Shown piece after piece: positions 4,152 to 35,900 of a stretch of 64,000 nucleotides of DNA (within the stretch, counting starts at the first letter, position 1; every line of letters starts with the position of its first letter). Source of the stretch: a virus. Lineage: Duplodnaviria; Heunggongvirae; Uroviricota; Caudoviricetes. The notes below the pieces were generated by a model. The model was not told where the DNA came from and made no database searches. It saw only the letters and a program-made list of their open reading frames with translations. The stretch is taken from the IMG/VR virus record IMGVR_UViG_3300050190_000017. One strand, 5' to 3'. Both the position numbers and the translations under genes were made by a program.

Positions 4152-5012
4152 ATGTTCAAATTAAACGCAGCATCACGATTGTTAGCCTCCAGTGGGACTA
4201 GAGTTAAAGCCTCAGACATAGACGAGCACCAAGAGGAAGATGAGGTGGCAGTTAAAGACTTCCTTGAAACCAATCCAGTAACTGCTGCAGATACCCTAAG
4301 CTCTAGGGACGAGCGAGACACCTCAAGTGGTATGTTTGCCGCCGAAGAGTTAGGTGACGGCTATGCAAATCCTCCACGTACAAGCACTAGAGAATCAGGT
4401 ACTGCGTTCCCTATGGCTAAGCTGTTGGCTTCCCGGCTTCGGGCGGCAATTGAGAAGCACGGGGCTATGGGTGATAACTCGGTTTCCACGGATCCACTAC
4501 TCCAGGGTGTCGAGGATTCTAACCCCAGAGCAGTAGAGGCGGACTCCACTACGGACAATCCGTTCGATATGTTTGAGTCGAGCATACCCTCTATTGACAT
4601 TAACCTAGAGGACCAGCCGGATGTAGTGAGAGGTGCTAAGAGAAAGCCTGCTACTAAAAAGAAGCCAGCAGCTAAACGTAAGTCTAAGCCTAAAGCAATG
4701 CTAGACCGCTTGTTAGATGAGCAGTCTATCATGTATCAGAATGAGGCTTCGGTTGTGGAAGCAGACTCCACTGTGGACGTGGACTCCCCTCCTGGGTCGA
4801 CCTATGTTAAGTTCCCGGTCTCGCGTGATGAGGACGAGAACTACCTGGCGGCTACGTTCGATACGGGTTGTGAAAGTCATGAGATGCTAGGTGAACCTTC
4901 TGAAGAGGGCGAGGTTCAAATCCTTAGTGATGCAGACGAGGAACCTGAGGAGGTACTGGGTGATGCTGACGCCTTACATCTGTGGAACGTAGCCAATCAG
5001 CCTCTTAGCTAA
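4152..5012 (+). CDS. Acidic putative head-internal/core protein with MFKLNAASRL N-terminus
   Basis: AGGAG RBS; shared N-terminal peptide; acidic with a KRKPATKKKPAAKRK basic patch. Confidence 0.6.
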   Translation: MFKLNAASRLLASSGTRVKASDIDEHQEEDEVAVKDFLETNPVTAADTLSSRDERDTSSGMFAAEELGDGYANPPRTSTRESGTAFPMAKLLASRLRAAIEKHGAMGDNSVSTDPLLQGVEDSNPRAVEADSTTDNPFDMFESSIPSIDINLEDQPDVVRGAKRKPATKKKPAAKRKSKPKAMLDRLLDEQSIMYQNEASVVEADSTVDVDSPPGSTYVKFPVSRDEDENYLAATFDTGCESHEMLGEPSEEGEVQILSDADEEPEEVLGDADALHLWNVANQPLS

Positions 5013-5017
5013 CAATC

Positions 5018-5026
5018 AATTTCATA
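5018..5026 (+). promoter_or_regulatory. Candidate late promoter AATTTCATA
   Basis: Same 9-mer recurs about 20-40 nt upstream of several structural/lysis genes. Confidence 0.5.
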
Positions 5027-5047
5027 TTAAATAACTAGGAGTTAATT

Positions 5048-5554
5048 ATGGCTAGAACTTCTTTAGCTAACGTGCAGTCTATTGCTGATCCGGCGACAAG
5101 CTGGGAGTACGACCTCTTTTTGCCTGCCATCCCAGGCTCAGCTGATACTCGACAGCTTACCTATCGCTGCCAGTCTACTGCTTTGCCAGGTGCTGCTATG
5201 GACCCTGTGACTGTAGCCTTGCACGGTGTGGAACTTCGATACGCAGGTCGTGCTATTTATACGCACACCTTTGAATCAGTGTTCATGGAAGGTTCGGACT
5301 ACCTAACCCGTACCTCCTTCATTAACTGGCGTGAGAGTGCCCGTTCATGGGTGAACAATAGTGGAACGTTGGCTTCCGCTTATAAGGTGAACGGCCAGAT
5401 CGTGGTTTACAACTCGATCCCTAACGTAGTGAAGACTGTTAACGTCTATGGTATGTGGCCGGAAACAATTGCAGACTACGCAATGGACGGTACCGCATCG
5501 AATCTTGTTACCCTGTCTATTACGTGGAACTATGACTACCTTGTAGATGCATAG
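5048..5554 (+). CDS. Tail tube protein
   Basis: AGGAG RBS; 168 aa; CQSTALPG, YAGR, GMWP and LSITWNYDY segments typical of T4 gp19-like tubes; follows the sheath. Confidence 0.85.
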   Translation: MARTSLANVQSIADPATSWEYDLFLPAIPGSADTRQLTYRCQSTALPGAAMDPVTVALHGVELRYAGRAIYTHTFESVFMEGSDYLTRTSFINWRESARSWVNNSGTLASAYKVNGQIVVYNSIPNVVKTVNVYGMWPETIADYAMDGTASNLVTLSITWNYDYLVDA

Positions 5555-5570
5555 ACCCTAGGAGTTTAGA

Positions 5571-6179
5571 ATGATTAAGCTCCAAGCTGCCTCTAGGTTA
5601 TTGGCTAACTGGTGGGATGCCCTAGATGAGGACCAGAAAGAAGAATACATTGAGGAGCATCCCGATAGCAAATACGCTATGGGCTACGACGGAGAGGATG
5701 ACGATACATCCAAGCATAAGCCCAAGAAACTAAAGGATGGCCTTAAACCTCCGCCCAAGACTCTGAAAACTCCGAAGGCCCTTCTGGAAGGCCCGAGCGG
5801 TGAAGACGAGGACTCAGACGATACAACAAAGCCTAAACCAAAGAAGAATCCAGACGAGGAGAAGAGTCTAACTAAGTATCTCCTTCATAAGGGTGGGGAC
5901 GCAGCTAAGAAGAAGGCCAAGGAGCTGGTGAAGAAGGGAGGCCATGAAGTTATTCGTCGCCTACTTGATCCCCTGGAGCTTACTGACATAGGCAAGAAGG
6001 GCGAGCTACCAGAGCTACCCTTCAAATTTAAGTCTAAGGAAGGTAAGATTAAGGATCTCCAAGGAAAGCGTACTAAGCTGCGGAAGGAGATGAAGGGGTA
6101 CGGAAAGAATGTACCCCAGAAGCTCAAAGATCAGATGAAAGAATTGTCCGATAAGCTAGAAGGGCTTCAGGAGGACTAA
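5571..6179 (+). CDS. Lys/Asp/Glu-rich putative head-internal protein (MIKLQAASRL)
   Basis: Shared N-terminal peptide followed by WWDALDEDQKEEYIEEHPDSKY module. Confidence 0.6.
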   Translation: MIKLQAASRLLANWWDALDEDQKEEYIEEHPDSKYAMGYDGEDDDTSKHKPKKLKDGLKPPPKTLKTPKALLEGPSGEDEDSDDTTKPKPKKNPDEEKSLTKYLLHKGGDAAKKKAKELVKKGGHEVIRRLLDPLELTDIGKKGELPELPFKFKSKEGKIKDLQGKRTKLRKEMKGYGKNVPQKLKDQMKELSDKLEGLQED

Positions 6180-6261
6180 GGTACGATTCAGTACTGTAGT
6201 GATTCTAAACATTCATTAGCTGGCAGAACTGTACCATTACCAAAAAATTAAAGGATTAGAA

Positions 6262-6480
6262 ATGAAGATTCAACTTAACGCAGCAGCCCGACTTACAGAA
6301 GTTACTGCAGCGGAACATTCTGACACTGAGATAAAGCAGCTTCAGAACAAAATCGCCACTACTAAGCAACTGATCAGTATGGGTAGAGGTGGAGTAGCAG
6401 CTAGAGACGGACTACAGAAACTACAAGAAAAGATGAAAAAGATGCGAGAAGACAATCGTAAGGCCAAGAAGACTAAGTAA
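6262..6480 (+). CDS. Small basic putative head-internal protein (MKIQLNAAARL)
   Basis: AAGGA RBS; shared N-terminal peptide; Lys-rich helical body. Confidence 0.6.
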   Translation: MKIQLNAAARLTEVTAAEHSDTEIKQLQNKIATTKQLISMGRGGVAARDGLQKLQEKMKKMREDNRKAKKTK

Positions 6481-6563
6481 CCGCCGTACCGACCCGTAGA
6501 GGTTCACTACTGTTTCACACTTTCTTTCACAACAAAGTTGCTGCACAACTAAGGATATAAATC

Positions 6564-7322
6564 ATGAACAGCATTATGGACTACGCAAAGACTGTAAGCA
6601 TTACCGACTTCCGGATGAAGAGCGAGACGCTGGCTAAGGTGATGATCTCGTTCACTGGTAAGCAGACAAAGGAAGACATTCGTGCGGCTCTCCAACATAA
6701 GTTCAACAACCTGGCTGCTCCCGTTGAAGATAGCTTCCGTATCGTCAAAGCTGGTGTAGCTGTTGGGTTCGTTCGTTCTAACAAGGAAGTGCGGGTTGTC
6801 TCTGATAAAGAGTTGCGGGCATCCTATAAGGTAATGTCGTCCAACATTATGATGGATGATGCAGACAAGTCGCTGTGGGAAATTCGTGAGGGCAAGGCTG
6901 GTAAGTTCCTTGCACGTCATGGTCACGAGGACCTGTCGGAATTGGTTAATGCTTCGGTGCATCGCCGGTCGGACATTCCTGCATTGCGTAGCCTTCAGAT
7001 CGCTAAGGCTGCTTCAGGTGAGTTCGTCTCGTTTGTCTCGAAGTCGGGTGACATGGATCACGGTTTCGTAGTGGCTTCTAACGATAAGCAAGTTAAGGTG
7101 GTGTCGTCTACTACCCAAACTGCTGCCGTTGTTGATTATGATATGGTGACGGTTATCTCGCAGGTACCAATCCCCAAATCGTTTAGTCGTGCTATGGTGA
7201 AGGCTAACATTAGCCGTGCGGACCAGACCCAGGCCATTGAGTACTGGTCGAAGTTGTACAGCTATGCTCCGGATTATTTAGAAGAAATTCGGCGCCAGGT
7301 GGAAGAAGGCACGACTGCGTAA
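6564..7322 (+). CDS. Hypothetical protein, probably virion-associated
   Basis: AAGGA RBS; 252 aa ORF inside the structural cluster; no family recognised. Confidence 0.6.
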   Translation: MNSIMDYAKTVSITDFRMKSETLAKVMISFTGKQTKEDIRAALQHKFNNLAAPVEDSFRIVKAGVAVGFVRSNKEVRVVSDKELRASYKVMSSNIMMDDADKSLWEIREGKAGKFLARHGHEDLSELVNASVHRRSDIPALRSLQIAKAASGEFVSFVSKSGDMDHGFVVASNDKQVKVVSSTTQTAAVVDYDMVTVISQVPIPKSFSRAMVKANISRADQTQAIEYWSKLYSYAPDYLEEIRRQVEEGTTA

Positions 7323-7340
7323 TCAACTAGGGCTACTAAT

Positions 7341-7691
7341 ATGAAGATTCAACTTAACGCAGCAGCGCGGCTGATGGAAACTACGGAAGTAGTCGCAGCC
7401 CCATCCTGGTTCACTTCTCTCAATCCGGAGATGCAAAGAGAGTACCTTAAGCGTCATCCCGACTCGAAGCTTGCTAAGGACGCCGGAAAACCAGCACCTA
7501 AACCAAAAAACCCAGCAAAGCCGAAGGTATCTAAGGCCCCTGCTGATCGCAAGACTACAGTGCAGCAACGTATCAAGAAGATTCAAACACGGCTCAAGCA
7601 GCTGACACGGGATCCAGAAGCGGATGAAGTAGAAGTTTCTGAGCTTGAGCAGGATCTCCGCAAGTACAAAGAGGATCTCACAAAACTGTAA
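7341..7691 (+). CDS. Basic putative head-internal protein (MKIQLNAAARL)
   Basis: Shared N-terminal peptide plus WFTSLNPEMQREYLKRHPDSKL module and coiled-coil tail. Confidence 0.6.
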   Translation: MKIQLNAAARLMETTEVVAAPSWFTSLNPEMQREYLKRHPDSKLAKDAGKPAPKPKNPAKPKVSKAPADRKTTVQQRIKKIQTRLKQLTRDPEADEVEVSELEQDLRKYKEDLTKL

Positions 7692-7709
7692 CTAACCGGG
7701 TAACCAAAT

Positions 7710-7741
7710 AGCCCCATTGAAAATTATACTTCAATGGGGCT
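7710..7741 (+). terminator. 12-bp hairpin immediately upstream of the oxidoreductase operon
   Basis: AGCCCCATTGAA-aattatac-TTCAATGGGGCT followed by CTTCTATTT. Confidence 0.55.
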
Positions 7742-7753
7742 CTTCTATTTACT

Positions 7754-8236
7754 ATGAAAATTACACTGAATATAAACGAGCAACGGTACTCTGGTGATCT
7801 TGAACCCAGGGTAACGCTGCTCGATGCAATCCGTGAACGTGCCGGGTTGATGGGAACAAAGAAAGGCTGCGACAGAGGACAGTGTGGAGCATGTACTGTA
7901 CTGGTTGACGGTCGGCGTATCAACTCCTGTTTAACGTTAGCCGTTATGCACGACGGTCAAGAGATCACTACTGTAGAGGGACTTGCTGAAGGTGACAAAC
8001 TCAGCGATCTTCAACAAGCCTTCCTCGACTACGATGCTTTCCAATGCGGCTACTGTACCCCAGGTCAACTGTGTTCAGCTTCAGCATTGCTAAATGAATT
8101 AGACCGTGGGGAACTGAGTGCTGTCTCAGGTGCCTCACTGGATGACGAGATCAAAGAGCGTATGAGCGGCAACCTCTGTCGCTGTGGAGCATATCCCAAT
8201 ATCGTTAAGGCGATCAAAGCAGTATCGGAGACCTAG
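7754..8236 (+). CDS. yagT: Xanthine dehydrogenase family / aldehyde oxidoreductase 2x[2Fe-2S] subunit (PaoA/YagT-like, no Tat leader)
   Basis: GTKKGCDRGQCGACTV...SC and QCGYCTPG...GNLCRCG: both [2Fe-2S] cysteine sets intact. Confidence 0.95.
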   Translation: MKITLNINEQRYSGDLEPRVTLLDAIRERAGLMGTKKGCDRGQCGACTVLVDGRRINSCLTLAVMHDGQEITTVEGLAEGDKLSDLQQAFLDYDAFQCGYCTPGQLCSASALLNELDRGELSAVSGASLDDEIKERMSGNLCRCGAYPNIVKAIKAVSET

Positions 8237-9211
8237 ATGGAAAACTTCTCCTACATTCGAGCCACAGATATTCAAAGCGCACTGAGTGCTAACGGTACAT
8301 TCATTGCAGGAGGCACTAACCTCCTGGACTTGATGAAGGGCTGCGTAGAACATCCGTCCGGCCTTGTTGACATTACTCACGTACCAGGACTAGACAAGAT
8401 TGAGGAGCTCCCTAACGGTGGGTTCCGTATTGGGGCAACAGTTCGCAATAGCGATGCCGCCAACCATCCGGTAGTCCGTACTAAGTATTCCCTATTAAGC
8501 CAGGCTATTCTATCGGGTGCATCCGCTCAGTTGCGTAACATGGCAACCACTGGTGGTAACTTGATGCAGCGTACTCGTTGTGGTTACTTCTACGATACGA
8601 TGTTTAGCGAATGCAACAAGCGCGAACCCGGTAGTGGCTGTGCTGCTATTAATGGTGCTAGTCGCAACATGGCTATCTTTGGTTCTAGCCCTCAGTGTAT
8701 TGCCACCAACCCATCTGATATGAGTGTAGCATTAGCTGCGCTAGATGCAGTTGTGCAGGTGGTAGGGCCTAAAGGCAAACGCAGTATTCCAATCACTGAC
8801 TTCCATCGTCTCCCTGAGGATACCCCCGAGATTGATACCGTTCTACAGCAAGGAGAGCTCATAGTCTCCGTAGACCTCCCGCCCCATGAGTTCACACACG
8901 TTCACTATTTGAAAGTCCGAGATCGTCATAGCTTTGCATTCGCTGTGGTCTCTGTTGCAGTAGCGTTAAAGATGGAAGGTAATGTAGTGCAAGATATTAG
9001 GATCGCTTTAGGTGGTGTTGCGTTAAAGCCGTGGAGAGCGTCAATAGCAGAGAAGCTGTTGATTGGTAAGGAGCTAACTTCAGACGCGCTAAAGGAAGCA
9101 TCCGTAGCTGAACTACTGAAAGCAAAGCCTGCTAGGGATAACCGATTCAAAGTAAGGTTAGCACAACGTTCCATCGTGCGCGCCATTAACACAGCTAGAG
9201 GTGTACAGTGA
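8237..9211 (+). CDS. yagS: Aldehyde oxidoreductase FAD-binding subunit (PaoB/YagS-like) with [4Fe-4S] insert
   Basis: [53 protein letters not shown] (four Cys), [21 protein letters not shown]. Confidence 0.95.
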   Translation: [324 protein letters not shown]

Positions 9212-11400
9212 TTATCGGCCAACCAATAAATCGTACTGATGGGGTACTAAAGGTCACAGGTGCGGCTCCCTATGCTGCTGACTTCAAGGTCCCTGGCTTG
9301 GTACACGCGGTAATGGTAACCTCTACTATTGCTAGTGGTACAGTTAAGATTGATGCAGAAGAAGTCGAGAAGATGTTAGGCGTACTCCTCGTATTGACTC
9401 ACGCTAACGCACCTAAGCTACCGAAGATTGAGGAAGTAGTGTTACCTGCTACCCGTATGTTGTCCCTATGTCAGGACGATAAGGTGCACTACAGCAATCA
9501 ACCTATCGCAGTTGTGGTCGCCACTACCCTAGAGCGGGCAACTGAAGCTGCTAACAAACTTAGTATTACTTATACTGAGGAAGAAGCTGTACTCGAATTT
9601 GATAGTGCAGACGGGTACACTCCTCCACCCCAACTTGATGTGCCACCCGATACTAAACGTGGTGACTTCGAGGAAGGGTTTGAGGAAAGTGATGTACAGA
9701 TAGATGAAGTGTACACCACACCCATCGAGAATCACAATCCGATCGAGACGTTGGCTACCTTAGCCCAGTGGGACGGACAGAAGTTAGTTCTGCACGATAC
9801 CACTCAAGGGGTGCATGATGCGAAGAAGGCGATCGCTAAGGCCCTCGGTATAGAGGCCTCGGACGTGCGTGAACTATCTCCGTACCTTGGGGGTGGTTTC
9901 GGCTGCAAGGGTTCAACGTGGTCGCACGTTATTCTATGTGCTACAGTTGCGAAGATGTTGGACAAGCCTGTACGCTTAGTGGTGACTCGCCCTCAGATGT
10001 TTGGCCCTGTCGGATATAGACCGAATACTGAGCAGCACGTTAAGCTAGGGGCTACCAAAGACGGCGTGCTTACTGCAATGTCCCACACTAGCTACTCTAC
10101 CACCTCTATGCTAGAGGATTGGACTGAGACGTGCTGTGAGATCTCCCGCATTCTCTATGATGTACCCAATCAAGTAACTGCTCACCGATTAGTAAAGCTT
10201 AACATCGGCAATCCAACGTTCATGCGAGCACCTGGGGCAATCACGGGATCATTCGCACTGGAATCAGCTATGGATGAATTGTCGTATGCCCTAAAGATGT
10301 GTCCAGTAGAGCTTAGGCTTAAGAACTACGCAGAGAAGGATCCTGATAGTGGCAACCCTTGGTCTAGTAAGTTTCTCAATGAATGCTACTCCATAGGGGC
10401 ATCAAAGTTCGGATGGGATAAACGGCAGCCGAAGCCTAGGACTCTGCGTGAGGGCCGTAAGCTGATCGGTATGGGTATGGCAACAGCTACCTATCCTGGT
10501 AATCGAGGTGATGCCTCAGCTAAGGTGATCATACGTACAGACGGTACTGCAGTTGTGGGATCTGGTACTCATGACTTAGGAACCGGTACCTACACTGTTA
10601 TGACTCAGGTTGCTGCACAGGCGTTGGGCTTCACTGTGGACAACGTGACATTTTTATTAGGTGACTCTGCACTGCCTAAGTCTCCCGATGCTAGTGGATC
10701 TAAGTCTGCTGCCTCTATTAGCCCTGCTGTTTATTCTGCATGTGCGAAGGCCCGACAGAAGCTTATTGCCTTGGCAGTTAAGGATAAGAAGTCTCCTGTG
10801 TATGGCAAATCTGAGGTAGTAATCGAGAACGGGTGGATTATCAGTAAGGAGTCCCCAGTTCGACGTGACTCAGTTAAGGCCGTAATGGGGAGATCAGGCA
10901 CACCTATCGAAGCATCGGCCAATGCGAATACAGGTGATGAACGAGACGAGTATTCCTTCCATTCATTCGGTGCAGTCTTCGTAGAAGCTCATGTCGATGC
11001 AGATCTGGGGACCATCTGTATTCCACGGGTTGTAGCCGTCTATGATGTAGGTCGTATATTAAACCAGAAGACTGCTCACTCCCAGATGATGGGCGGCATA
11101 ACATGGGGCATTGGTGCCGCACTGGAAGAAGAGACTATATTCGATACCAACTGTGGGCACTTCGTTAATGCTAATCTAGCTGACTACCATGTGCCGGTTA
11201 ACTTGGATATAGGTGATCTCGATATAACGTTTCTAAACAAGCCCGATCCCCATATTAGTTCGATGGGTGTTCGTGGTGTCGGTGAGATCGGTATCACTGG
11301 CATAGTAGCAGCCATTGCTAACGCGGTTTACAATGCTACTGGTGTACGAGTTCGTGATCTTCCGATTACGATGGACAAAATTATACTCCCTAAGGAATAG
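9208..11400 (+). CDS. yagR: Aldehyde oxidoreductase molybdopterin-binding subunit (PaoC/YagR-like)
   Basis: DGVLKVTGAAPYAAD, HNPIE, GGGFGCKG, MRAPG, DLGTGTYT, GVGEIG (catalytic Glu), NAVYNATGVRVRDLPIT; GTGA overlap with the FAD subunit. Confidence 0.95.
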   Translation: MIIGQPINRTDGVLKVTGAAPYAADFKVPGLVHAVMVTSTIASGTVKIDAEEVEKMLGVLLVLTHANAPKLPKIEEVVLPATRMLSLCQDDKVHYSNQPIAVVVATTLERATEAANKLSITYTEEEAVLEFDSADGYTPPPQLDVPPDTKRGDFEEGFEESDVQIDEVYTTPIENHNPIETLATLAQWDGQKLVLHDTTQGVHDAKKAIAKALGIEASDVRELSPYLGGGFGCKGSTWSHVILCATVAKMLDKPVRLVVTRPQMFGPVGYRPNTEQHVKLGATKDGVLTAMSHTSYSTTSMLEDWTETCCEISRILYDVPNQVTAHRLVKLNIGNPTFMRAPGAITGSFALESAMDELSYALKMCPVELRLKNYAEKDPDSGNPWSSKFLNECYSIGASKFGWDKRQPKPRTLREGRKLIGMGMATATYPGNRGDASAKVIIRTDGTAVVGSGTHDLGTGTYTVMTQVAAQALGFTVDNVTFLLGDSALPKSPDASGSKSAASISPAVYSACAKARQKLIALAVKDKKSPVYGKSEVVIENGWIISKESPVRRDSVKAVMGRSGTPIEASANANTGDERDEYSFHSFGAVFVEAHVDADLGTICIPRVVAVYDVGRILNQKTAHSQMMGGITWGIGAALEEETIFDTNCGHFVNANLADYHVPVNLDIGDLDITFLNKPDPHISSMGVRGVGEIGITGIVAAIANAVYNATGVRVRDLPITMDKIILPKE

Positions 11401-11405
11401 CCCAA

Positions 11406-11897
11406 ATGAAAATTCAACTCAATGCCGCAGCCCGTTTGGTAGAGTCAGGCTTTGAAGACTGGCCTAAAGAACGTCAACAGAAGTACCTCAAAGAGCATCC
11501 TGGTAGTAAGTATGGTAAGGGTGGAGGTAAGGCTGCTCCGGTAAAGACAGTGCCTACAAAACCTGCACCAATAAAGCCTACGCCAGCCGCCAGCTTCAGT
11601 GGCGATTTAGGTAAGAAGCACAAGATCGACTTAGGGGAATACGTAGTCCGGGATGGTGAACGTTCTGGCGAGGGGTACACCGATCAGAAAGCCGTGGACT
11701 CAATGTCTAAAGATTTAATTAAACAAGGCTTTGAGCAAGAGGACTGGGGGTCCGACGGAACGCACTACAGCAAGGGAGATCATTCTGTAACGATCAAGAA
11801 AACGTCCGACGGAGACTATAGGGTTACGACGTTTGAACCTGCACCGAAGAAGCCTCTGAAGCGGTCGAAGGTCCGTCCGTCTAGCCTGTACGACTGA
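11406..11897 (+). CDS. Putative head-internal protein (MKIQLNAAARL)
   Basis: RBS AAGGA lies in the last codons of the Mo subunit gene; shared N-peptide plus FEDWPKERQQKYLKEHPGSKY module. Confidence 0.6.
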   Translation: MKIQLNAAARLVESGFEDWPKERQQKYLKEHPGSKYGKGGGKAAPVKTVPTKPAPIKPTPAASFSGDLGKKHKIDLGEYVVRDGERSGEGYTDQKAVDSMSKDLIKQGFEQEDWGSDGTHYSKGDHSVTIKKTSDGDYRVTTFEPAPKKPLKRSKVRPSSLYD

Positions 11898-11952
11898 TCT
11901 GTTATCCTTGACTACCTTGTAGTCCTAGCCTCATTGACCCCGTTAGAACTCA

Positions 11953-12687
11953 ATGAGGTTCCTAATGAACTACCTACCAGTTCCCGCTAGATACGCTCTG
12001 GGTATTACCCAGTCCTCCCTACCGTCTGTAGTAGACTTGAGGCCGAAGTGTAGCCCCATAGCCAATCAGGGTGATATGAGTAGCTGTGTTGCCTTTGCCG
12101 TTATCAGTGCAATGGAGTACCTAGAAAACGTACAGCACAACTCTACGATCTCTCTGTCTCAGCAGTTTGTGTACTACAATGAACGAGTCCTAAACGGCTC
12201 TGTAGCTTCAGATGACGGGGCCTTCGTAGAGGATGGAATAAACGTCCTTCTGACCTACGGGGCCTGTGAGCTATCCTTGTGGCCGTATTCAAAGGATGAC
12301 CTCTACACCAAGCCCTCAGATGCTGCCTACGCCGATGCAACTAAACGTAAGGCGTTAAAGTATTCGCGTGTAGCCCAGGATCAAACCTCTGTGATGACCC
12401 CCCTGTCTAATGGCTATCCAGTAGTATTAGGGTTCCTTGTGTACCCCGCGTTTGAATCGCAAGAGGTAGCGGCCTCTGGTATTGTGCCTATGCCGAACTC
12501 TACGGAGGAAATGCTAGGTGGCCATTGCGTGTGTATAGTAGGCTACGACTTGGCGAAGCAGATGTTTCTAATCCGTAACAGCTGGGGACCTGATTGGGGG
12601 ATCAATGGTTACTGCTGGATGCCGTTTGCCTACGTACTGAGTCCTAGCTTGGCTCATGGGATGTACGCCATTGAGAGCGTATCCTAA
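11953..12687 (+). CDS. Papain-like cysteine peptidase (C1 family)
   Basis: VDLR...NQGDMSSCVAFA (oxyanion Gln and catalytic Cys), GGHCVCIVGY (His), IRNSWG (Asn). Confidence 0.92.
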   Translation: MRFLMNYLPVPARYALGITQSSLPSVVDLRPKCSPIANQGDMSSCVAFAVISAMEYLENVQHNSTISLSQQFVYYNERVLNGSVASDDGAFVEDGINVLLTYGACELSLWPYSKDDLYTKPSDAAYADATKRKALKYSRVAQDQTSVMTPLSNGYPVVLGFLVYPAFESQEVAASGIVPMPNSTEEMLGGHCVCIVGYDLAKQMFLIRNSWGPDWGINGYCWMPFAYVLSPSLAHGMYAIESVS

Positions 12688-12694
12688 TTTCATA
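12686..12694 (+). promoter_or_regulatory. Candidate late promoter AATTTCATA
   Basis: Recurrent 9-mer, about 20 nt before the ATG at 12715. Confidence 0.5.
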
Positions 12695-12714
12695 ACATAT
12701 TTTAAGGATTTCTA

Positions 12715-13113
12715 ATGAAGGTCAAACTACACGCAGCATCACGACTTAGGGCAGCTGTTGATAGCCAAGCACTAGATGAGTTCACCGATCTCATTAAATG
12801 TTTGGATTCTGTGAAGTGGCAGAAGCTAGAAGACAAAGGCTTCTTCGATAACATGGAAGAGTGCTGCGTGCAGTTCGATCAGGATAGCTACGAAGCACTA
12901 TACAAGAGGTTGCAGGCAGAAGGCTACGTTGAAGTAGCAGAGGTGGATGTGTCGTCTATTGAATGTCTCAAGACCTGCCCTAGTGGTATTGTTCTAGGGT
13001 ATGGTTCAGGGCAGCGCTGTCCTCTTGTATGTTGTGTAGATGACGATCACTCGTATCTGTACATGCCGACTTCTACGGACGACGTACAACAGTTTATTCA
13101 AACCTTAGGATGA
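12715..13113 (+). CDS. Acidic Cys-rich putative head-internal protein (MKVKLHAASRL)
   Basis: AAGGA RBS; variant N-peptide; 8 Cys in 132 aa. Confidence 0.6.
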   Translation: MKVKLHAASRLRAAVDSQALDEFTDLIKCLDSVKWQKLEDKGFFDNMEECCVQFDQDSYEALYKRLQAEGYVEVAEVDVSSIECLKTCPSGIVLGYGSGQRCPLVCCVDDDHSYLYMPTSTDDVQQFIQTLG

Positions 13114-13118
13114 CTGAA

Positions 13119-13355
13119 ATGAAAATCAAGTTGAATGCAGCAGCACGGTTGTTAGCCGCCGAGGGTGAAGCACAGAAAGATCCCGCAGAGGAATCTTTGA
13201 AGAGGCGTTTGGAAATTCAGAAGGAGAAGCCAACTGAAGATCAAAGCTTTGGGGACAAGAAGTCTATCTTGGATACGCAGGAACAACTAGAACGTACCAA
13301 AGAGCAAGTGAAGCGTAAGAAGGAAGGCGGTAAACCAGAAGGCGGAAAAGAGTAA
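13119..13355 (+). CDS. Small charged putative head-internal protein (MKIKLNAAARL)
   Basis: Start moved to ATG 13119 to match the shared N-peptide; K/E-rich body. Confidence 0.6.
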   Translation: MKIKLNAAARLLAAEGEAQKDPAEESLKRRLEIQKEKPTEDQSFGDKKSILDTQEQLERTKEQVKRKKEGGKPEGGKE

Positions 13356-13358
13356 ATC

Positions 13359-13396
13359 GAGGGACACTGAGCAATTGGTGTCCCTCTTCTACTTTG
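13359..13396. terminator. Intrinsic terminator between convergent blocks
   Basis: GAGGGACAC-10 nt-GTGTCCCTC followed by TTCTACTTTG, exactly at the + / - strand junction. Confidence 0.75.
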
Positions 13397-13627
13397 TTAC
13401 TCGACTATAATCCATGCCTTCTCTACAGGCTCGTCGTTTTCCTTATAGTACTCCATGAGGATGTAGTCGGTGTTGTTTAACCCCATGTACCGCCACCGAT
13501 TTAGCATCTTAGGGCTGGGTACAATCTCCTTACCATTCTCAAAGACTTGAAGATCCTCTAGCTTGCAGTCATTGATCTTCCTAAGCTCTGCTTTCAGCTC
13601 CCTGACTCGTTCAATATCAACTCTCAT
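13397..13627 (-). CDS. Hypothetical protein
   Basis: Part of a tightly packed minus-strand run of small ORFs. Confidence 0.6.
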   Translation of the reverse strand: MRVDIERVRELKAELRKINDCKLEDLQVFENGKEIVPSPKMLNRWRYMGLNNTDYILMEYYKENDEPVEKAWIIVE

Positions 13628-13828
13628 TTAGAATCCCTCGTCGTAGTATACAGTCTTCTCTTGATCCAGAAAGATCGTTGCGATGCTTTCCTGTTCGGCG
13701 CCGTGGACAACAACCATATGGTTATCCTTAATTGCAATTAAGGCGTCATCGTCAAGCTTTCTCAATAGCTCTATGAGCTTGCCGCGGCCTATCATCTCGT
13801 GACTAACGCCGTCAATTTCAACTTTCAT
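13628..13828 (-). CDS. Hypothetical protein
   Basis: Abuts the downstream ORF; AAGGA RBS. Confidence 0.6.
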   Translation of the reverse strand: MKVEIDGVSHEMIGRGKLIELLRKLDDDALIAIKDNHMVVVHGAEQESIATIFLDQEKTVYYDEGF

Positions 13829-13837
13829 TTGTGTTCC

Positions 13838-14266
13838 TTAGCATCTAAGATTAATGTCCCCGAGGCCTGATACTATATCCTGCCGCTCATTCACTACCCT
13901 TGTAGCTGGAGCATAGAATTCCCTAAGCTCTTTAATCTCCGCAAACACACTAGGGAGTTCATCATTAGTAGCCCAATGCTTTGTGGTAACTCGGGTAACA
14001 CTATACCCGATGTTCTCAAAATGCCTATCAGGTTCAGCTAGCCACAACGAGCAGACACTGCGAACTACAATAACGTCTGCTCCCTTATTCTTTAGCACCA
14101 CCTGTACATCTATGACTTTATCGAAAGGCTGAGTTGATGTGGTGCCATGCTGCAGTACGTGCTCAACCCTAGTCATATCCCCACGACTAATGAACAACGA
14201 TAGATGCCCGCCGTGTAAGTAATCGATCCTCGGTGAATCGTACTCAGGTAGCTCTAGGATTCTCAT
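13838..14266 (-). CDS. Hypothetical protein
   Basis: ATGA overlap with the upstream ORF. Confidence 0.6.
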   Translation of the reverse strand: MRILELPEYDSPRIDYLHGGHLSLFISRGDMTRVEHVLQHGTTSTQPFDKVIDVQVVLKNKGADVIVVRSVCSLWLAEPDRHFENIGYSVTRVTTKHWATNDELPSVFAEIKELREFYAPATRVVNERQDIVSGLGDINLRC

Positions 14267-14517
14267 GTCTTCCTCCCTGGTAGCATGTCACAGGAGCCCC
14301 ACACGCCGTACCCTACCACGGTAACAACGAACATCAACTTCCCGGTAAAGATGTCCACGCCGTATGGAGTTACCCGTACATCCCTTGCGTTAATACCTCG
14401 ACCTGTAAACGCCGTGGTAGCTTGAACTGCACACGCTAAAGCTTCCATAGTAGGCTCACATTCTCGCTCAGTAGACATAGACTCAGCACGACTACCACGG
14501 TGTTCTCGAATTTTCAT
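14263..14517 (-). CDS. Hypothetical protein
   Basis: ATGA overlaps on both sides. Confidence 0.55.
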   Translation of the reverse strand: MKIREHRGSRAESMSTERECEPTMEALACAVQATTAFTGRGINARDVRVTPYGVDIFTGKLMFVVTVVGYGVWGSCDMLPGRKT

Positions 14518-14795
14518 TTCTTCCTTTTAGGCATTGGGGCCCACGCTTGAAAGTATTGCTTATCGTCTGAAGTCAACACTGAGAAGGTAGCGCATCCACT
14601 ATGATTGAGTACGATCAGCTTACCTCCTACGGGTGCGCTTTCCATATCGTAGTTATACTCACTAACCTGAGCAGTAACAGGGTTGCCTCCCATGTGCCCT
14701 GGATACTTCGGGACTTCCCTTAGTCGTTGATTCTCCGCTTCCAGGTGTTTAACTCGTTCAACTAATTGTGTAGCCAGGTGTAGTAGGTCAGACAT
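14514..14795 (-). CDS. Hypothetical protein
   Basis: GGAG RBS; short coiled-coil N-terminus; coupled to neighbours. Confidence 0.6.
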   Translation of the reverse strand: MSDLLHLATQLVERVKHLEAENQRLREVPKYPGHMGGNPVTAQVSEYNYDMESAPVGGKLIVLNHSGCATFSVLTSDDKQYFQAWAPMPKRKK

Positions 14796-15078
14796 TGAGG
14801 TACTCCGCCTTTAGGAAACGATGGGCAGAGCACAACCCTTCTCGAATAATGACTTCCAGATCTTCCGGTGTTTCCAACGGAGTCCTACGTACAGCTTCCC
14901 TAAGGAACTTCTTAATCTTTAACGGATCGAAGGGTTTAACGTTAGAGGTCTGCGATTCGTAGAACAAAGCAATTGCCTTCTTCCGATCTGTTGCTGGAAC
15001 CATTGACCTTAAGAGCGCGTTCTCCCGCTGCAATTCCTCTAGCTGACTAGATAGAGCTTCAATACTGCTAATTTGCAC
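14788..15078 (-). CDS. Hypothetical protein
   Basis: GAGGGAGG RBS before a GTG start. Confidence 0.6.
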   Translation of the reverse strand: MQISSIEALSSQLEELQRENALLRSMVPATDRKKAIALFYESQTSNVKPFDPLKIKKFLREAVRRTPLETPEDLEVIIREGLCSAHRFLKAEYLNV

Positions 15079-15193
15079 TTTTAGCCTCCCTCATGGGTAT
15101 TTGCCTACAAACCCGATTTTGACCCCGTAGGATAGGGGCTACAGCGTCGTAGCCTACCTGCAATGAACGGGTTTATCGGGTAACGTTTACACA

Positions 15194-15502
15194 CTATTTA
15201 GCCTGAGGCGCCAATTGATTACCTGCTCCCTGTGGCGCCTGTTGTTGCGGAAGTCCGTAACCCTGTTGACCGTAGCTTTGTTGTGGGACATCTTCATACC
15301 TAACTGTAGGGTACTTCTCAGGGAACGCCATGAGTGTGCGGCACACGTTACACACATGCCGTACTAATACTTTCTCACCCTCTTGAAAAAGAGCCTGGGC
15401 TCCGGAGAGCGCCATCATCTCCCCTTGCTTGCAAGCATCACAGATATAACGGACACCGAAGGGACGAACTTCAACACGTTGCTCTGGCATGATTAACCTC
15501 AT
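15194..15502 (-). CDS. Zinc-ribbon protein with Gln-rich tail
   Basis: CDAC and CNVC pairs; GAGG RBS. Confidence 0.6.
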   Translation of the reverse strand: MRLIMPEQRVEVRPFGVRYICDACKQGEMMALSGAQALFQEGEKVLVRHVCNVCRTLMAFPEKYPTVRYEDVPQQSYGQQGYGLPQQQAPQGAGNQLAPQAK

Positions 15503-15526: not shown

Positions 15527-16867
15527 CTATATATCGCTCGCTAAATTGGGAATGTCTGTGCGCTTCTTCTTACCCTGCTCAGGCTTGACCTCACCTAGGC
15601 CGCTGTTGTCTTCTAGGGCAACATCCTCAGTACGCATGTGCTCGAAGTCAATCTTAATAGAGAAGGGGAAGGACAGAGAGTTTCGAGACTTAGGCTGCTC
15701 GATCTTAGTGATCCCGGTCTCTTTTGACTCTTTCGAGCTGATCCAGATCCAGCTATTACTAGAGTGCTCGGAGATCGCTCGGGCATAACGGATCTTCCCC
15801 TCATCAGACACCTGACAAAGTAAGATCGAAACCCGGTTCTCTACCTCGGCATTGATCTTTGCGTATCTGGCTACGGCACCAAGTGCTTGCCACATGTCAT
15901 CGCCGTCCACCCCCTTAAGTAGTGATATATAGTCGATGATAACTACATCGACCGTGTATGCACTTATTGAGGCCATGATCTCCTCAATAGTCATATCCTC
16001 TTTCGGCTTGAATATAGTGTATCGACCACCAGCGTCTTTAACTCGGGTCTTCCACCTTTTATAGCGTTTATATGCTAGATCCTTCTCTCCGCTGGCTAAC
16101 CGTCCAAGTAGGATCTTTGACAAATTCATCTTAGTGATGTTCGCCATGATGCGACCGGACATCTCTCGCTCTGACATTTCAAGAGGCACTAGCAGTACCT
16201 TATACCCTAAACTCGCCATCTTCACTGCCATGGCGGAGGCAACTGCTGATTTGCCTCCTCCTGAGTTAGCACCCAAGGTCACAAGTGATCCTCTGGCAAA
16301 TCCCCCACTTACAGTGTCGAATGCTTTAATACCCGTAGGTATGACGTTCTCAGAATTGTCATCATACAGTAACGACTTAATTACCGCGTCGGCATTGTTG
16401 TTACGACCAAAATGCAAGAATGCCTCAGAAGTAGTCTTCTTCGAGCGGATCACGTTGAACGCTGTTGCTGTTTCCTCTAGTAGCCCGTCAAGGTCAACTC
16501 GAGATCCCTGCATCTTCGAGTTGATATGTGCTGCTAAGTTATACATACCTCGGCGCTGACGATACTTGTTTAGTATGCGTGCTGCCTTGTCTGCATCGGC
16601 TGTGGTTTGTACTGTCGCGACGGAGGACCGGAAATGGGATCGTGCCTCCTCAGAAAGATCTGGGTCTTCAATTAATAATCTATATGTCGGGGACTCCCCC
16701 GACTCTTGCATGTGCTTCTTGATAGCCTCGTAGACCTCTATAGATTCTTCACTGTAGAAGTACGAACTATCTGTAGTGGAGAGAAGTGCTCCGGCTATCT
16801 TCTTGTTCTTGTGGGTCATCCCTCTCAATACGGCTAACTCGGCTGAGGGGCTTACAATCTTGAGCAT
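15527..16867 (-). CDS. dnaB: DnaB-like replicative helicase
   Basis: IPTGIKAFDTVSGGFARGSLVTLGANSGGGKS (Walker A), LEMS, VVIIDYISLL (Walker B), ILLCQ. Confidence 0.88.
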   Translation of the reverse strand: MLKIVSPSAELAVLRGMTHKNKKIAGALLSTTDSSYFYSEESIEVYEAIKKHMQESGESPTYRLLIEDPDLSEEARSHFRSSVATVQTTADADKAARILNKYRQRRGMYNLAAHINSKMQGSRVDLDGLLEETATAFNVIRSKKTTSEAFLHFGRNNNADAVIKSLLYDDNSENVIPTGIKAFDTVSGGFARGSLVTLGANSGGGKSAVASAMAVKMASLGYKVLLVPLEMSEREMSGRIMANITKMNLSKILLGRLASGEKDLAYKRYKRWKTRVKDAGGRYTIFKPKEDMTIEEIMASISAYTVDVVIIDYISLLKGVDGDDMWQALGAVARYAKINAEVENRVSILLCQVSDEGKIRYARAISEHSSNSWIWISSKESKETGITKIEQPKSRNSLSFPFSIKIDFEHMRTEDVALEDNSGLGEVKPEQGKKKRTDIPNLASDI

Positions 16868-19586: not shown

Positions 19587-20837
19587 TCATATAAGTCCGT
19601 GTGCCTGTAGAACAAACTTACGTTGTTTGCCACTCGCTATGTCACTAACAGTCTTTAAACTAACCCCGAAGCGTTCTGCAAACTTCTTTCTAACATTAAG
19701 GGTATCCTTATACTTTTGACATTTGAGAAATATTTCTACAACCTGTCTGTCCGTTATTTTTGTAACTTTGCTATTCGCGGCACCCGCCCTGAGCTTAGCT
19801 CTATAGTCAGCTTCATATTCAGCTGTACGAGAATCCCGAGTGGCTTGCCTCTTTTCCTCGTCAGCCTCTTTATCCTCGGATGTCTTCCGCGCGGCAGCAT
19901 TACGTAGATTTTCTCTGATTTCCAGCTTTTCTTTATCACTCTTTCTCGCCATTGTTTCGGCTCTTTTATTCTTTATTACTAATTTCTCCTCATCGCTTTT
20001 CTTAGCGTATGCCTCTGCTCTTTTCCTATTTGCTTCTTCGTAGTCTGTGTTGGCTACAGTGGCGGCAGTGCTTACGAGCACTTCTGCCGGGTCTCTACTA
20101 GCGTGCGTAAGAATTTTCTTTTGTCGAATTTCTTCCAGTTCTTCGTCACTCTTCTTCGACCAGGTTTCCTGTTTACGTTGCCGGGTATCTAGTTTCGCCC
20201 CATCTGGGCGAGTTAGCATGGACTGTACTCTTTTAGCAGTAATACGTTTCTTCTCTTTTGCTGGCTTACTATTCCAGGCGGATAGTGCATGCTCTCGTCG
20301 ATCTGCACTGCAGGTAAAGCCCCTGCCGTCTGATGCTATGTTAGTAAGTATTCCAGATTTGTCGTTTAATTGACCTAAGGCCTCTATAAGGATCTCTTCC
20401 TTACCTAAGGCGATAGGTTCTATAAGAGCATCGGAGAATTTATAAGTTATCACCTTTAATCCTGCCGCCTGAATAGCTAGTATAGTGTCTACCTTGGAAC
20501 TAGGATTATGTGGGTTCTTCTCCCTGTACTTATGAGCAGCGTTCTCGTGGTTGTACATACGATTGCCCTTCCCCTTCCCAACATAGAATGGTTCGTAGGA
20601 GAATGTTATTTGCTTAGTCGCAATCCAGTACGTATAGGGACCCGGCTTTCGAGGATCCAGTAGGGCATAGGCGTAGAACTCTTTCTTCAAAGAGAGTGTA
20701 TGCCCCCTGGTATTTGCGTCATCTAGTAGATTGTAAGCAATAGCTAGTACCTGCCCGTCTACCTCAGGGTACTTAGAGTGTCTCCACCGCTTCTCGTAAG
20801 GCTCTAGCGCCTTCTCTTGCGCCTTAGTTATTATCAT
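19587..20837 (-). mobile_element. Free-standing GIY-YIG (LEM-3-like) homing endonuclease
   Basis: FYAYALLDPRKPG...PFYVGKGKGNR...E...GILTN catalytic domain; long K/E/R-rich repetitive DNA-binding tail ending in an HTH-like segment. Confidence 0.8.
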
Positions 20838-32999: not shown

Positions 33000-35900
33000 G
33001 TGCTCATACAACTTACGACAGCCGGGGCGATGCTTTTACAGAATGCTACCGGCCCAATTACACTCACCTCATTCGAGTTGGGTTCTGATTATAACTACAC
33101 TCCAGAGCCTACCGACACGATGCTGCACGGTACGGAAGTGTATGCTGGAACTCCTAGCCTACCCCTAGCCGTTAACGCTAACATCGTAAAGTGGTCGTGC
33201 TTCATCGACTACCCAGTTGGTCCTTTCCAATTCGGTGAGATCGGATTATATGTAGGGACTACTCTGTTTGCTCTGGGTACTTCATCCGAGCTTATCGAGA
33301 AGCTAGCTTTGACCTCGGTTGACCCAGGTAACTCTATCGTTATAGATGTTTATGTCTCGGTAGTAGGAACGAACTATAACATCTGGTTGAATTTGAACCA
33401 GAGTAGCAATAGCTTCCGCATGGGGGTGTTGCAAACCGCAGATCAATTACCCCCGTCTGCCGGTGCTGTTCCTAACGCCTACATTGTACAGGGTGCATCT
33501 AGCTATCAGTCCGCATTCTTTGCTTATACAGATACGAATGGGCTATGGAACTTTGATGCCTACGACTTTGCCCAGCAGACCACCGCCACCATCACTGCGG
33601 TGGACAGTCAATCCGTAACGATTGCAATGTCGCAGTACGTAATGGGTATGAGTCCTGCGTACTTCGGTGAAGTGCTGTTGCAGTTTAGTACTGGTGCTCT
33701 GTACGGTATTGTCCGCTACGTGGAGACGGCAGTCATCAGCGGAGACACAGTTACCCTAGGTTTCGCTACTCCCTTAGCAATGTTGCCTGCGGTAGGTGAT
33801 GAATTCCTGGTCTTCGGTCGTCAGATTCTGTCAACCCAGGTGATGAATCTGCCCCCGGCTACCACGACGAAGCTGGGCGCTATAATGGTGGGCTACGGTC
33901 TTCTGGTAGATTCAACCGGATTACTTAGTGTAGACGAAACCAAAGCACCTGTGCAGATGGTTAATGGGCAGATGGGCGATGTGATGCTGACGGCCTCAGA
34001 CATCTACGATATCGCTAAGGTTGCCATTACCGGTAACTATTACGACCTACTGAATTACCCGGCACCATACACGCTAATGCCTGCTACTACCACTACGTTG
34101 GGTGGAGTAAAAGCACCAGCTACGTCGGAAATGCACCTTACCATTGCGACGGATGGTACGATTGATCTAGCGTTCAATCCGGTTAAGTCGGTGAACATGC
34201 AATATCCGGATCCTAGCACAGGTGACGTGGAAGTTTATATCCCTACGTACACAGGTTTAGTTAATCCGGTGGCCTTGTCTGCTAATACAGACTTGAACAC
34301 GATGATGACAACTGGGTTGTACTACATAACCAGTTCGACGGTGGGGACTATCCTGAATTTGCCTTTGGGTGTGGCAACGGAAGCCACGTTAGAAGTTGTA
34401 CCCCTGACTATGGTGGGACCTGGAGATGTTATTCAGCGGGTGTCCACTTCCTCGACTATGTACTTCCGGGGATTAACAGGGAACACCTGGAGCCTTTGGA
34501 ACGAAGTAGCTACCACGATGACTCACATGGAGCAGTCGATTACGGCTACCATGATGAATCAGACTACGTTCCTTACTACTGGCTATACTCCTGGTTACAT
34601 AGAGGTGTTCATTGCGGGATTGAGATTAGTCCCGAACGTAGACTATACGGCTACTGACAGCTTGAACATTACGCTTATTAATGCAGCGTTAATTGCTCAG
34701 GTGCAGATCGGTGCAGTGCTAACCATTTCGTCGTTTACGATCTTCAGTATTAGTAATGCTGTGCCGAAGTCTATGTTGGCTTCATCAACAGGGGCTACCC
34801 TAGTTGGGTATAATTCAATGGACTTAGGGCTCACCACGGTAGGATACTTCCTCAGTCAGCTAGAGGCCGGGTTCCTAGCTGGAAAGTTTACCACGTTGAA
34901 CGTTAGCAATAACACTCCATCTACCTCGACTACCACTGGAGCAGTAACAGTAGTAGGTGGACTTGGTGTTGAAGGCGAACTGAATGTAGGATCGCTATCT
35001 TCAGTGAATCTTAACTTCACCCAAGCGTCTATGCTACCTGTACCTACTACGGGTACTGTGTTTCGGCTGGTCAATGCAGACGGCGTAGAAACGAAGATAG
35101 ATGTGGACGCCTATGTGAGCACGGGTAATCCTATGGCCGGTGTTTCTTTACGTGGAGCACGGGGCACTGCGGCAGCGCCTATGGCAATCCAGAACACGGA
35201 TATTATTGGGCTGGTAGCCGGACATGGTTATGGTACTACTATGTTCCAGATGGGTAGCACTGCTGTTATGCAGTTTGTGGCTGAGGAGAACTTCACCGAT
35301 ACCTCTATGGCTACTGCTATAGCCTGGCAGGTAACTCCTACAGGCTCCATAGTAAGAACCGAGAAGATGCGGTTAAATTCTATGGGTGTCTTGATGTTAG
35401 AGGCTAATCTTCCTTCTACTTCGGTTCTCACTGGTAGTGGTGTTGTAACAGGAGGTCTTGGTGTCAGTGGGGCAGTTAATGCTGGTATGACTTCTTCTGT
35501 TAGTGCTAACGTTACCCCGATCGGCAGCCAGATGCCAGCACCAGTAGGGACAATGCTTAGAGCTACCGAAGCTGATGACACAAATACTAAGATGGTGTTG
35601 GACTCGTATAATACGATGAACCCTACGTCTGGTTATATAGGTCGAGGAGCTAGAGGAACAGCTGCTATACCTACTGCAGTACAGAGCACAGATGTGATCG
35701 CGGCTTTCGGGGGTATTGGGTTTGGTACTACTGAGTATCAACCGCTAGTAACTGGTAGCGTGCATATAGTAGCGGAGGGTGCATTCACCGATACCTCTAA
35801 CCCAACTGCTGTGGCATTCATGGTGACGCCTAGTGGGTCGGTGACGAAGACGGAGGCAGGGCGCTTTAATAGCATGGGTGTGTTAATGCTTGAAGCTAAC

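Follow-up and report, generated by a model that had tools for sequence, protein, structure and literature searches.

A predicted PaoABC-like molybdoenzyme operon in a variable cargo slot of a jumbo myophage related to phiRSL1 and BcepSauron

Members of the xanthine oxidase family hydroxylate their substrate at a molybdenum (Mo) centre, from which electrons pass via two [2Fe-2S] clusters to a subunit that binds flavin adenine dinucleotide (FAD). PaoABC of Escherichia coli (YagTSR; PDB 5G5G/5G5H), a periplasmic aldehyde oxidoreductase of this family, accepts a broad range of aldehydes, favouring aromatic ones, makes no use of NAD+ and is slow to react with O2, contains the molybdopterin cytosine dinucleotide form of the cofactor, requires PaoD for its maturation and shields E. 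coli from cinnamaldehyde (PMC3958847), while its PaoB and PaoC subunits reach the periplasm only by way of the twin-arginine translocation (Tat) signal of PaoA and are otherwise cytoplasmic (PMC4273604). A second solved heterotrimer, 5Y6Q, is a bacterial aldehyde oxidase whose deposited small subunit is leaderless and comprises 162 amino acids (aa). Its source organism is Methylobacillus sp. KY4400. Here we describe a three-gene operon, predicted to encode an enzyme of this type, at positions 7754-11400 of a 64,000-nucleotide stretch of viral DNA (IMG/VR record IMGVR_UViG_3300050190_000017), the whole of which is referred to below as the window. We consider it probable that the three genes form a true auxiliary metabolic operon of the phage, one that was captured from, or from near, Burkholderia sensu lato (s.l.), that is held under purifying selection, and that would serve cytoplasmic aldehyde oxidation with cofactors provided by the host.

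The region consists of three consecutive open reading frames (ORFs) on the + strand, all of them intact and translationally coupled:

7754-8236, + strand: small subunit, 160 aa, with two [2Fe-2S] clusters, PaoA/YagT-like (Pfam Fer2, Fer2_2)
8237-9211, + strand: medium subunit, 324 aa, FAD-binding, with a PaoB-type four-Cys [4Fe-4S] insert (Pfam FAD_binding_5, CO_deh_flav_C)
9208-11400, + strand: large subunit, 730 aa, molybdopterin-binding, with a GTG start (Pfam Ald_Xan_dh_C, MoCoBD_1, MoCoBD_2)

Pfam E-values across the three subunits range from 1e-7 to 1e-56 (FAD_binding_5, 1.7e-40; CO_deh_flav_C, 1.7e-16). The small subunit aligns to PaoA residues 61-221 (E = 2e-56), the medium subunit to PaoB (5G5G_B, E = 1.5e-86), and the Mo subunit to 5Y6Q_C (E = 1e-156) and PaoC (E = 3e-134), such that all three subunits match both 5Y6Q and PaoABC 5G5G with E-values from 1e-54 to 1e-156. 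For the predicted fold these sequence matches to solved heterotrimers are decisive, and the three genes are assigned to a PaoABC-like molybdo-iron-sulfur flavoenzyme of the xanthine oxidase family. The operon shares with E. coli PaoABC the order of the FeS, FAD and Mo genes, a small subunit with two [2Fe-2S] clusters and an FAD subunit with the unusual [4Fe-4S] cluster, at identities of 57% (FeS), 52% (FAD) and 37% (Mo); 5Y6Q is the best solved match to the Mo subunit and a strong one to the other two. An earlier annotation of this DNA, made by a model from the letters and translated ORFs (hereafter the sequence-only reading), had proposed three intact, coupled genes for [2Fe-2S], FAD/[4Fe-4S] and Mo subunits at these positions, on which the ORFs, the Pfam assignments and the gene junctions agree.

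To gauge conservation, each subunit was aligned with 80-83 bacterial homologues from species genomes, and a column was termed near-invariant when at most one bacterial sequence departed from it. The phage proteins keep 235 of 239 such columns, including 74/74 in the FAD subunit and 110/113 in the Mo subunit. All eight [2Fe-2S] cysteines are present (C39, C44, C47, C59, C98, C101, C142 and C144, at each of which all 80 bacterial homologues also have Cys), as are the four [4Fe-4S] cysteines of the FAD subunit (C115, C126, C135 and C154, aligned to PaoB cysteines and 100% conserved). The Mo subunit retains the GGGFGxK motif at residues 228-234 and, as the sequence-only reading had pointed out, the catalytic Glu: Glu693 (GxGE) is the aligned counterpart of PaoC Glu692, and 83 of 83 relatives have it. 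PaoC Arg440, a functionally important active-site residue, corresponds to Tyr429 of the phage protein, a difference from the E. coli enzyme that is shared by 82 of the 83 relatives and by 5Y6Q.

The TAG stop of the first gene (8234-8236) directly abuts the ATG of the second at 8237, with GGAG at 8227-8230, while the GTG start of the third at 9208 overlaps the second by 4 nt onto its TGA stop (9209-9211), with GAGG at 9198-9201; at both junctions the GGAG or GAGG lies at the correct spacing. The 4-nt B/C overlap also occurs in bacterial orthologues, E. coli PaoABC included. At the far end of the operon, the AAGGA ribosome-binding site of the next gene (11406-11897) occupies positions 11392-11396, within the last codons of the Mo subunit, exactly as had been noticed from the sequence.

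The nearest homologues of the operon are YagTSR-type operons of Burkholderia s.l. (e.g., loci L004, L005 and L007-L031 of our collection), which show the same gene order and B/C coupling. Those of Paraburkholderia, Burkholderia, Caballeronia and Trinickia share 63-71% (FeS), 62-69% (FAD) and 56-63% (Mo) identity with the phage proteins, and differ in that they possess a Tat leader and a downstream mocA-like gene, neither of which is found in the phage operon. In the small subunits of these bacterial relatives the leader is an N-terminal extension of 60-85 residues that contains a twin-arginine motif (SRRRFLQSAAA). It occurs in 29/29 Burkholderia s.l. loci (28 recognised by pattern, L023 by eye), and across all 81 loci the count is at least 62. 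The phage small subunit, in contrast, begins precisely where the mature domain does, at the position of PaoA residue 61; there is no in-frame start upstream of 7754 and no hydrophobic stretch at its N-terminus, and the protein has no Tat signal peptide of the PaoABC type. Because the Tat leader has been lost, and because PaoB and PaoC of E. coli need the PaoA signal, the phage enzyme should be cytoplasmic. A few bacterial relatives also seem to be without a twin-arginine leader, namely L041, L049 (Telluria), L047 and L059 (Cupriavidus), L051, L070 and L079, whose N-terminal extensions are only 20-30 aa long or do not carry the twin-arginine motif; export loss may therefore have occurred several times in this enzyme clade.

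The second loss concerns cofactor maturation. A gene for a MocA-like nucleotidyltransferase (cytidylyltransferase) directly follows the Mo-subunit gene in 27 of the 29 Burkholderia s.l. loci, and its place in the phage is taken by a phage gene with an N-terminal tag, described below. Searches with tblastn and phmmer of the 64-kb window, out of a genome of ~219 kb, revealed no homologue of MocA or of PaoD/XdhC; unlike in E. coli, no paoD adjoins the operon, nor does one in the 29 Burkholderia s.l. loci. Since just the three catalytic subunits have been kept, the cofactor would have to come from the host.

The origin of the operon was addressed by database searches and by phylogeny, the latter a check that the sequence-only reading had also suggested. 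Among 5.8 billion clustered proteins, the best non-self match of the Mo subunit is a Paraburkholderia protein with 63% identity, and the top 120 matches belong to Paraburkholderia, Burkholderia or Trinickia or are unnamed metagenome proteins. Two trees were computed, one from the three concatenated subunits (81 rows, 1246 columns, LG+G4) and one with 44 rows under a site-heterogeneous model (LG+C20 PMSF, quick search). In both, the phage is sister to the Burkholderia/Paraburkholderia/Caballeronia/Trinickia clade, and the joint clade receives an approximate likelihood ratio (SH-aLRT) value of 100. This grouping with Burkholderia s.l. identifies the operon, at the level of sequence, as one of cellular origin.

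In composition the operon has been ameliorated to its carrier. The G+C content at third codon positions (GC3) of the three genes is 0.45-0.47, compared with a mean of 0.495 (standard deviation, sd, 0.048) for the phage genes and with 0.68-0.83 in the two nearest Paraburkholderia operons (L004 and L005). In a leave-one-out synonymous-codon score the operon genes fall within the distribution of the phage's own genes (z = -1.9, +1.2 and +0.85), whereas the Paraburkholderia orthologues lie about 6.5 sd below the phage genes. The impression gained by eye that codon usage is phage-like is thus borne out by calculation, as is the suggestion that the operon is a long-term resident; a near-identical host copy with host-like codons, which had been named as evidence to the contrary, did not emerge, the best match being at 63% and the codons being those of the phage. 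As GC3 and codon usage are phage-like and not bacterial, both recent capture and chimerism with host DNA are very unlikely.

The source DNA is assigned on gene content and sequence similarity to a ~219-kb soil-type jumbo myophage, a relative of Ralstonia phage phiRSL1 and Burkholderia phage BcepSauron. Annotation of the window genes with PHROGs and Pfam places a major head protein fragment, a tail sheath and a tail tube upstream of the operon, and a DnaB-like helicase, further helicases, an SbcC-like protein, baseplate or tail proteins and tail fibres downstream. The sheath is 62-66% identical to those of phiRSL1 and of Burkholderia phages BcepSauron and BcepSaruman, and the gene order from the major head protein to the tube is the same as in these three phages. 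The Mo-subunit protein of the window is found on two contigs, the longest of 218,861 bp (JGI sample 3300050133), and the neighbours of its gene there are laid out as in the window; a genome of ~219 kb is usual in the phiRSL1/BcepSauron group. The immediate surroundings of the operon are as follows:

6564-7322, + strand: last conserved gene of the structural block (phrog_17573; homologue of phiRSL1 ORF145/146 and BcepSauron gp074)
7341-7691, + strand: upstream flanking gene, 116 aa, with an MKIQLNAAARL N-terminus (translation)
7710-7741, + strand: perfect 12-bp hairpin followed by CTTCTATTTA, a T-rich run, 12 nt before the first ATG of the operon (terminator scan)
11406-11897, + strand: downstream flanking gene, 163 aa, with an MKIQLNAAARL N-terminus (translation)
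11953-12687, + strand: gene for a papain-family (C1) peptidase, without the tag (Pfam Peptidase_C1, 1e-20)
13359-13386, + strand: strong terminator-like hairpin that closes the + strand late block and marks the right edge of the slot discussed below (terminator scan)
15527-16867, - strand: DnaB gene of the convergent replication block (PHROGs/Pfam)

The operon is phage-borne, with phage genes on either side. Both flanking genes encode proteins that start with MKIQLNAAARL, which the translations confirm, and their 61-aa N-terminal modules are 51% identical to each other. The sequence-only reading had seen no transposase or integrase nearby; consistent with this, the genes predicted in 4152-7691 and 11406-15502 were free of transposase, integrase and homing-endonuclease domains by Pfam and PHROGs. 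These data bear on the suspicion that the locus is an assembly chimera, or host DNA mis-joined to phage DNA. The contig is of metagenomic origin and its contiguity rests on composition and gene context, which is why the suspicion deserves mention; yet composition and codon usage are phage-like and unlike those of every bacterial homologue found, and no bacterial protein among those clustered exceeds 63% identity. Moreover, the paralogous phage genes on both sides and the ribosome-binding site of the next gene embedded in the Mo-subunit gene argue against a mis-join, so that we rate such an artefact as extremely improbable.

The flanking genes are part of a larger array. Seven + strand genes within 4152-13355 share the N-terminal tag M-x-[IKV]-[QK]-L-[NQH]-A-A-[AS]-R-L, with starts at 4152, 5571, 6262, 7341, 11406, 12715 and 13110 (in the last of these the tag begins at an internal Met), and a second motif, (Q)xxYLKxHPxSK, is common to several of the tagged proteins. 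In related phages, arrayed small proteins that occupy the corresponding slot bear the same tag (MELNAATRLLA...; L095, 10795-14008). The position of the operon within this array raises the question of whether the enzyme might be virion cargo, packaged and injected as the surrounding tagged proteins may be, and the start of its small subunit, MKITLN, does resemble the MKIQLN start of the tag. However, the tag core NAAxRL is present in none of the three subunits, the TLN is native to the bacterial orthologues (VTLNVNG), and a ~130-kDa cofactor-loaded heterotrimer would be improbable cargo, which together lead us to view packaging as very improbable. Capture of the operon by recombination with a tag gene, as the likeness of MKITLN to MKIQLN (14/18 nt) might suggest, was considered and rejected, given that the TLN was inherited from the ancestor and that no relationship links the upstream regions.

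With regard to its position in the phage genome, the operon was originally thought to lie inside a head-gene cluster. This proved incorrect: the operon lies downstream of the genes for sheath and tube and outside the head-gene cluster. Its site is a hypervariable cargo slot between 6564-7322 and the convergent DnaB module, where the late block of head and tail genes has its distal end. The product of 6564-7322 shows 52-59% identity to its phiRSL1 and BcepSauron homologues by tblastn, and 52-66% to 21 related phage loci that were fetched from IMG/VR by an alignment-based scan with this core protein; the same protein used as a single query gave no match in IMG/VR or metagenome contigs. After the homologue of 6564-7322, the relatives run on to the convergent replication block, the distance from the core gene to DnaB being 0.4-4.6 kb in the 21 related loci versus 8.2 kb here. 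What the slot holds in the relatives is tagged small proteins, a papain-like peptidase or unrelated genes, and none of the three enzyme subunits was found in any of the 21 loci (tblastn, E <= 1e-5). The operon being unique among them, it represents a lineage-specific acquisition and not a core feature. The papain-like peptidase is a recurrent slot cargo, since homologues with 45-51% identity occupy the same place, immediately after the core gene, in some of the related phage loci, namely L090-L093 (at about 10930-11589) and L096 (at 5788-6531).

A course of events and a mode of action may be proposed from these data. The operon would have been captured by an ancestor of a phiRSL1/BcepSauron-like jumbo phage from a donor in or beside the Burkholderia/Paraburkholderia/Caballeronia/Trinickia group, and would since have been maintained under purifying selection. 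Its products would form a heterotrimer in which electrons flow from the Mo-pterin via two [2Fe-2S] clusters to [4Fe-4S]/FAD, the most likely activity being conversion of aldehydes to carboxylic acids. The complex would assemble and reside in the cytoplasm of the infected cell as an aldehyde:acceptor oxidoreductase, with the host supplying the Mo cofactor (probably in its cytosine dinucleotide form), its sulfuration and insertion, the Fe-S clusters and FAD. The operon would be transcribed either along with the late structural block or through read-through out of it, and transcription would be attenuated. Most speculatively, the enzyme might remove reactive aldehydes, or draw electrons from them, during the production of phage DNA and virions.

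Several observations weigh against this proposal, the first set of which concerns the enzyme itself. Although PaoA and PaoC are the top-scoring named NCBIfam models, the equivalog cut-offs of both are missed (233 bits against 322 for PaoA, and 635 against 1180 for PaoC), and the phage enzyme is best placed, by sequence, nearest to an uncharacterised YagTSR-type clade and not as an equivalog of E. coli PaoABC. The Mo subunit is altered at seven near-universal positions, namely P181T, H182L, R253K, E344A, D365C, R604C and R651H, at sites conserved in 71-83 of 83 relatives; P181T and H182L fall in the conserved HNPMEPH segment and D365C replaces a fully invariant Asp. The phage branch is also long, at 0.54 versus a median of 0.13 in the 81-row tree and 3-4 times the median across the trees. 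In view of these substitutions and the long branch, substrate or activity may have changed, or constraint may have been partly relaxed. The G+C content of the phage, 48%, is furthermore far under that of Burkholderia s.l., and the search for cofactor genes covered just 64 kb of about 219 kb.

The same substitutions, among them P181T, H182L and D365C, together with the long branch and a predicted relocation to the cytoplasm, where other substrates are available, are what would be expected if the enzyme had kept its fold and electron chain and changed its pocket so as to act on something other than ordinary aldehydes, for instance an N-heterocycle, a derivative of a purine or pyrimidine, or a metabolite specific to the phage. 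Set against such a new function is the remainder of the active-site framework, which is as in aldehyde-oxidising relatives, Tyr429 included, and we hold it to be unlikely. Distinctly unlikely in our estimation is the bolder version, whereby a periplasmic detoxifier has been re-engineered into a cytoplasmic, host Mo-cofactor-dependent enzyme with an altered pocket that acts on a metabolite specific to the infected cell and has a physiological role of its own; its substrate may, for example, be an aldehyde or heterocycle from phage nucleotide, polyamine or DNA-modification chemistry.

A second set of objections to the proposal concerns expression. The hairpin at 7710-7741, strong and terminator-like, stands 12 nt before the first operon ATG (RNA fold of -23.7 kcal/mol, z = -3.95 versus shuffles), and is likely to separate the operon from the late genes upstream as an intrinsic terminator or attenuator. 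No Shine-Dalgarno sequence precedes the ATG at 7754, as is the case for a minority of starts in the window. The hairpin and the missing Shine-Dalgarno sequence imply that expression may be low or otherwise controlled. No sigma-70-like promoter was called ahead of 7754, and the promoter box TGTAAATA, considered as a driver of the operon, was rejected as it has no copy on the + strand. In addition, the operon is a singleton among known phages, and selection within phages is therefore not measurable.

Taken at face value, the isolated occurrence of the operon among the 21 related loci, the hairpin ahead of a first gene without a ribosome-binding site, the lack of cofactor-maturation genes within the window and the long branch would suit a passenger of no benefit to the phage, brought in by illegitimate recombination, poorly expressed or silent, and in slow decay. 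Such a passenger would, however, be hard to reconcile with ~3.6 kb free of stops and frameshifts despite a drop in GC3 of about 0.3, with the retention of 235/239 near-invariant residues and of all cofactor ligands, with translational coupling that has been not merely retained but tightened, and with the clean excision of both leader and mocA. We thus deem it improbable, and continue to favour a selected auxiliary operon for cytoplasmic aldehyde oxidation.

With respect to precedents, the auxiliary metabolic genes of large phages are likewise host-derived, situated in a variable region, flanked by phage genes and phage-like in composition, and both this phenomenon and the enzyme family are already known. 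The view expressed in the sequence-only reading, that no such complete operon was known from a lytic phage, held up in searches of IMG/VR, phage records and the literature, which gave no verified case. Phage records contain no near-identical DNA, and neither a single-protein scan nor an alignment scan of IMG/VR retrieved relatives of the Mo subunit. A tblastn search with this subunit against 50,697 phage records returned 15 matches, all below 40% identity. The best of these, MT835675 (MT835675.1 34715-58990, L088), was rejected because the record is marked UNVERIFIED and its xanthine dehydrogenase (XDH) genes are surrounded by bacterial-type ones, among them those for a full-length DnaB, a xanthine/uracil permease and a DUF485 protein; OR846590 was rejected as an UNVERIFIED_ORG record that covers 51% of the query. 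Ab105-3phi (KT588073.1 1-13633, L087) was also discarded as a precedent: its XDH genes are followed by trp genes and that for aminopeptidase N and preceded by that for GTP cyclohydrolase I, and owing to these adjoining genes they are regarded as the host flank of a prophage. Two PHROG families match the operon proteins, and the phage-database matches inspected are host flank or unverified, bacterial-looking records. Full-text literature searches disclosed no report of a phage-encoded xanthine-oxidase-family enzyme. As far as these searches reach, the operon has no verified phage counterpart, and a complete phage molybdoenzyme retargeted to the cytoplasm is undescribed.

Auxiliary genes of phages usually encode single, simple enzymes. 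The present operon encodes, by prediction, a complete three-subunit enzyme that needs a Mo cofactor, FAD and three iron-sulfur clusters, and these needs would make the phage reliant on several host cofactor pathways late in infection. That the export leader and the linked cofactor gene have both been cleanly lost makes the operon a natural experiment in the re-targeting of a Tat-exported complex. Should the enzyme be active, soil phages would have to be seen as under selection from aldehyde or redox stress, and a compact, leaderless PaoABC-type enzyme would become available for biocatalysis. Were it indeed a re-engineered detoxifier, it would be the first virus-encoded molybdoenzyme with a physiological role of its own.

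Three further features of the window were recorded. The TGTAAATA octamer occurs in seven copies within 16913-48759, all on the - strand, compared with 2.07 expected and with 0/100 shuffles reaching seven, and several of the copies are located just upstream of gene starts (16916, 24942 and 31932). In the replication block, 19587-20837 (- strand) encodes a 416-aa protein with a LEM-3-type GIY-YIG nuclease domain (PF22945) according to precomputed Pfam hits. Finally, a fibre-like protein of 1233 aa is encoded at 33000-36701; a polysaccharide deacetylase family (phrog_24355, 5e-24) is matched by its last ~110 residues, and the protein may be a receptor-modifying tail fibre.

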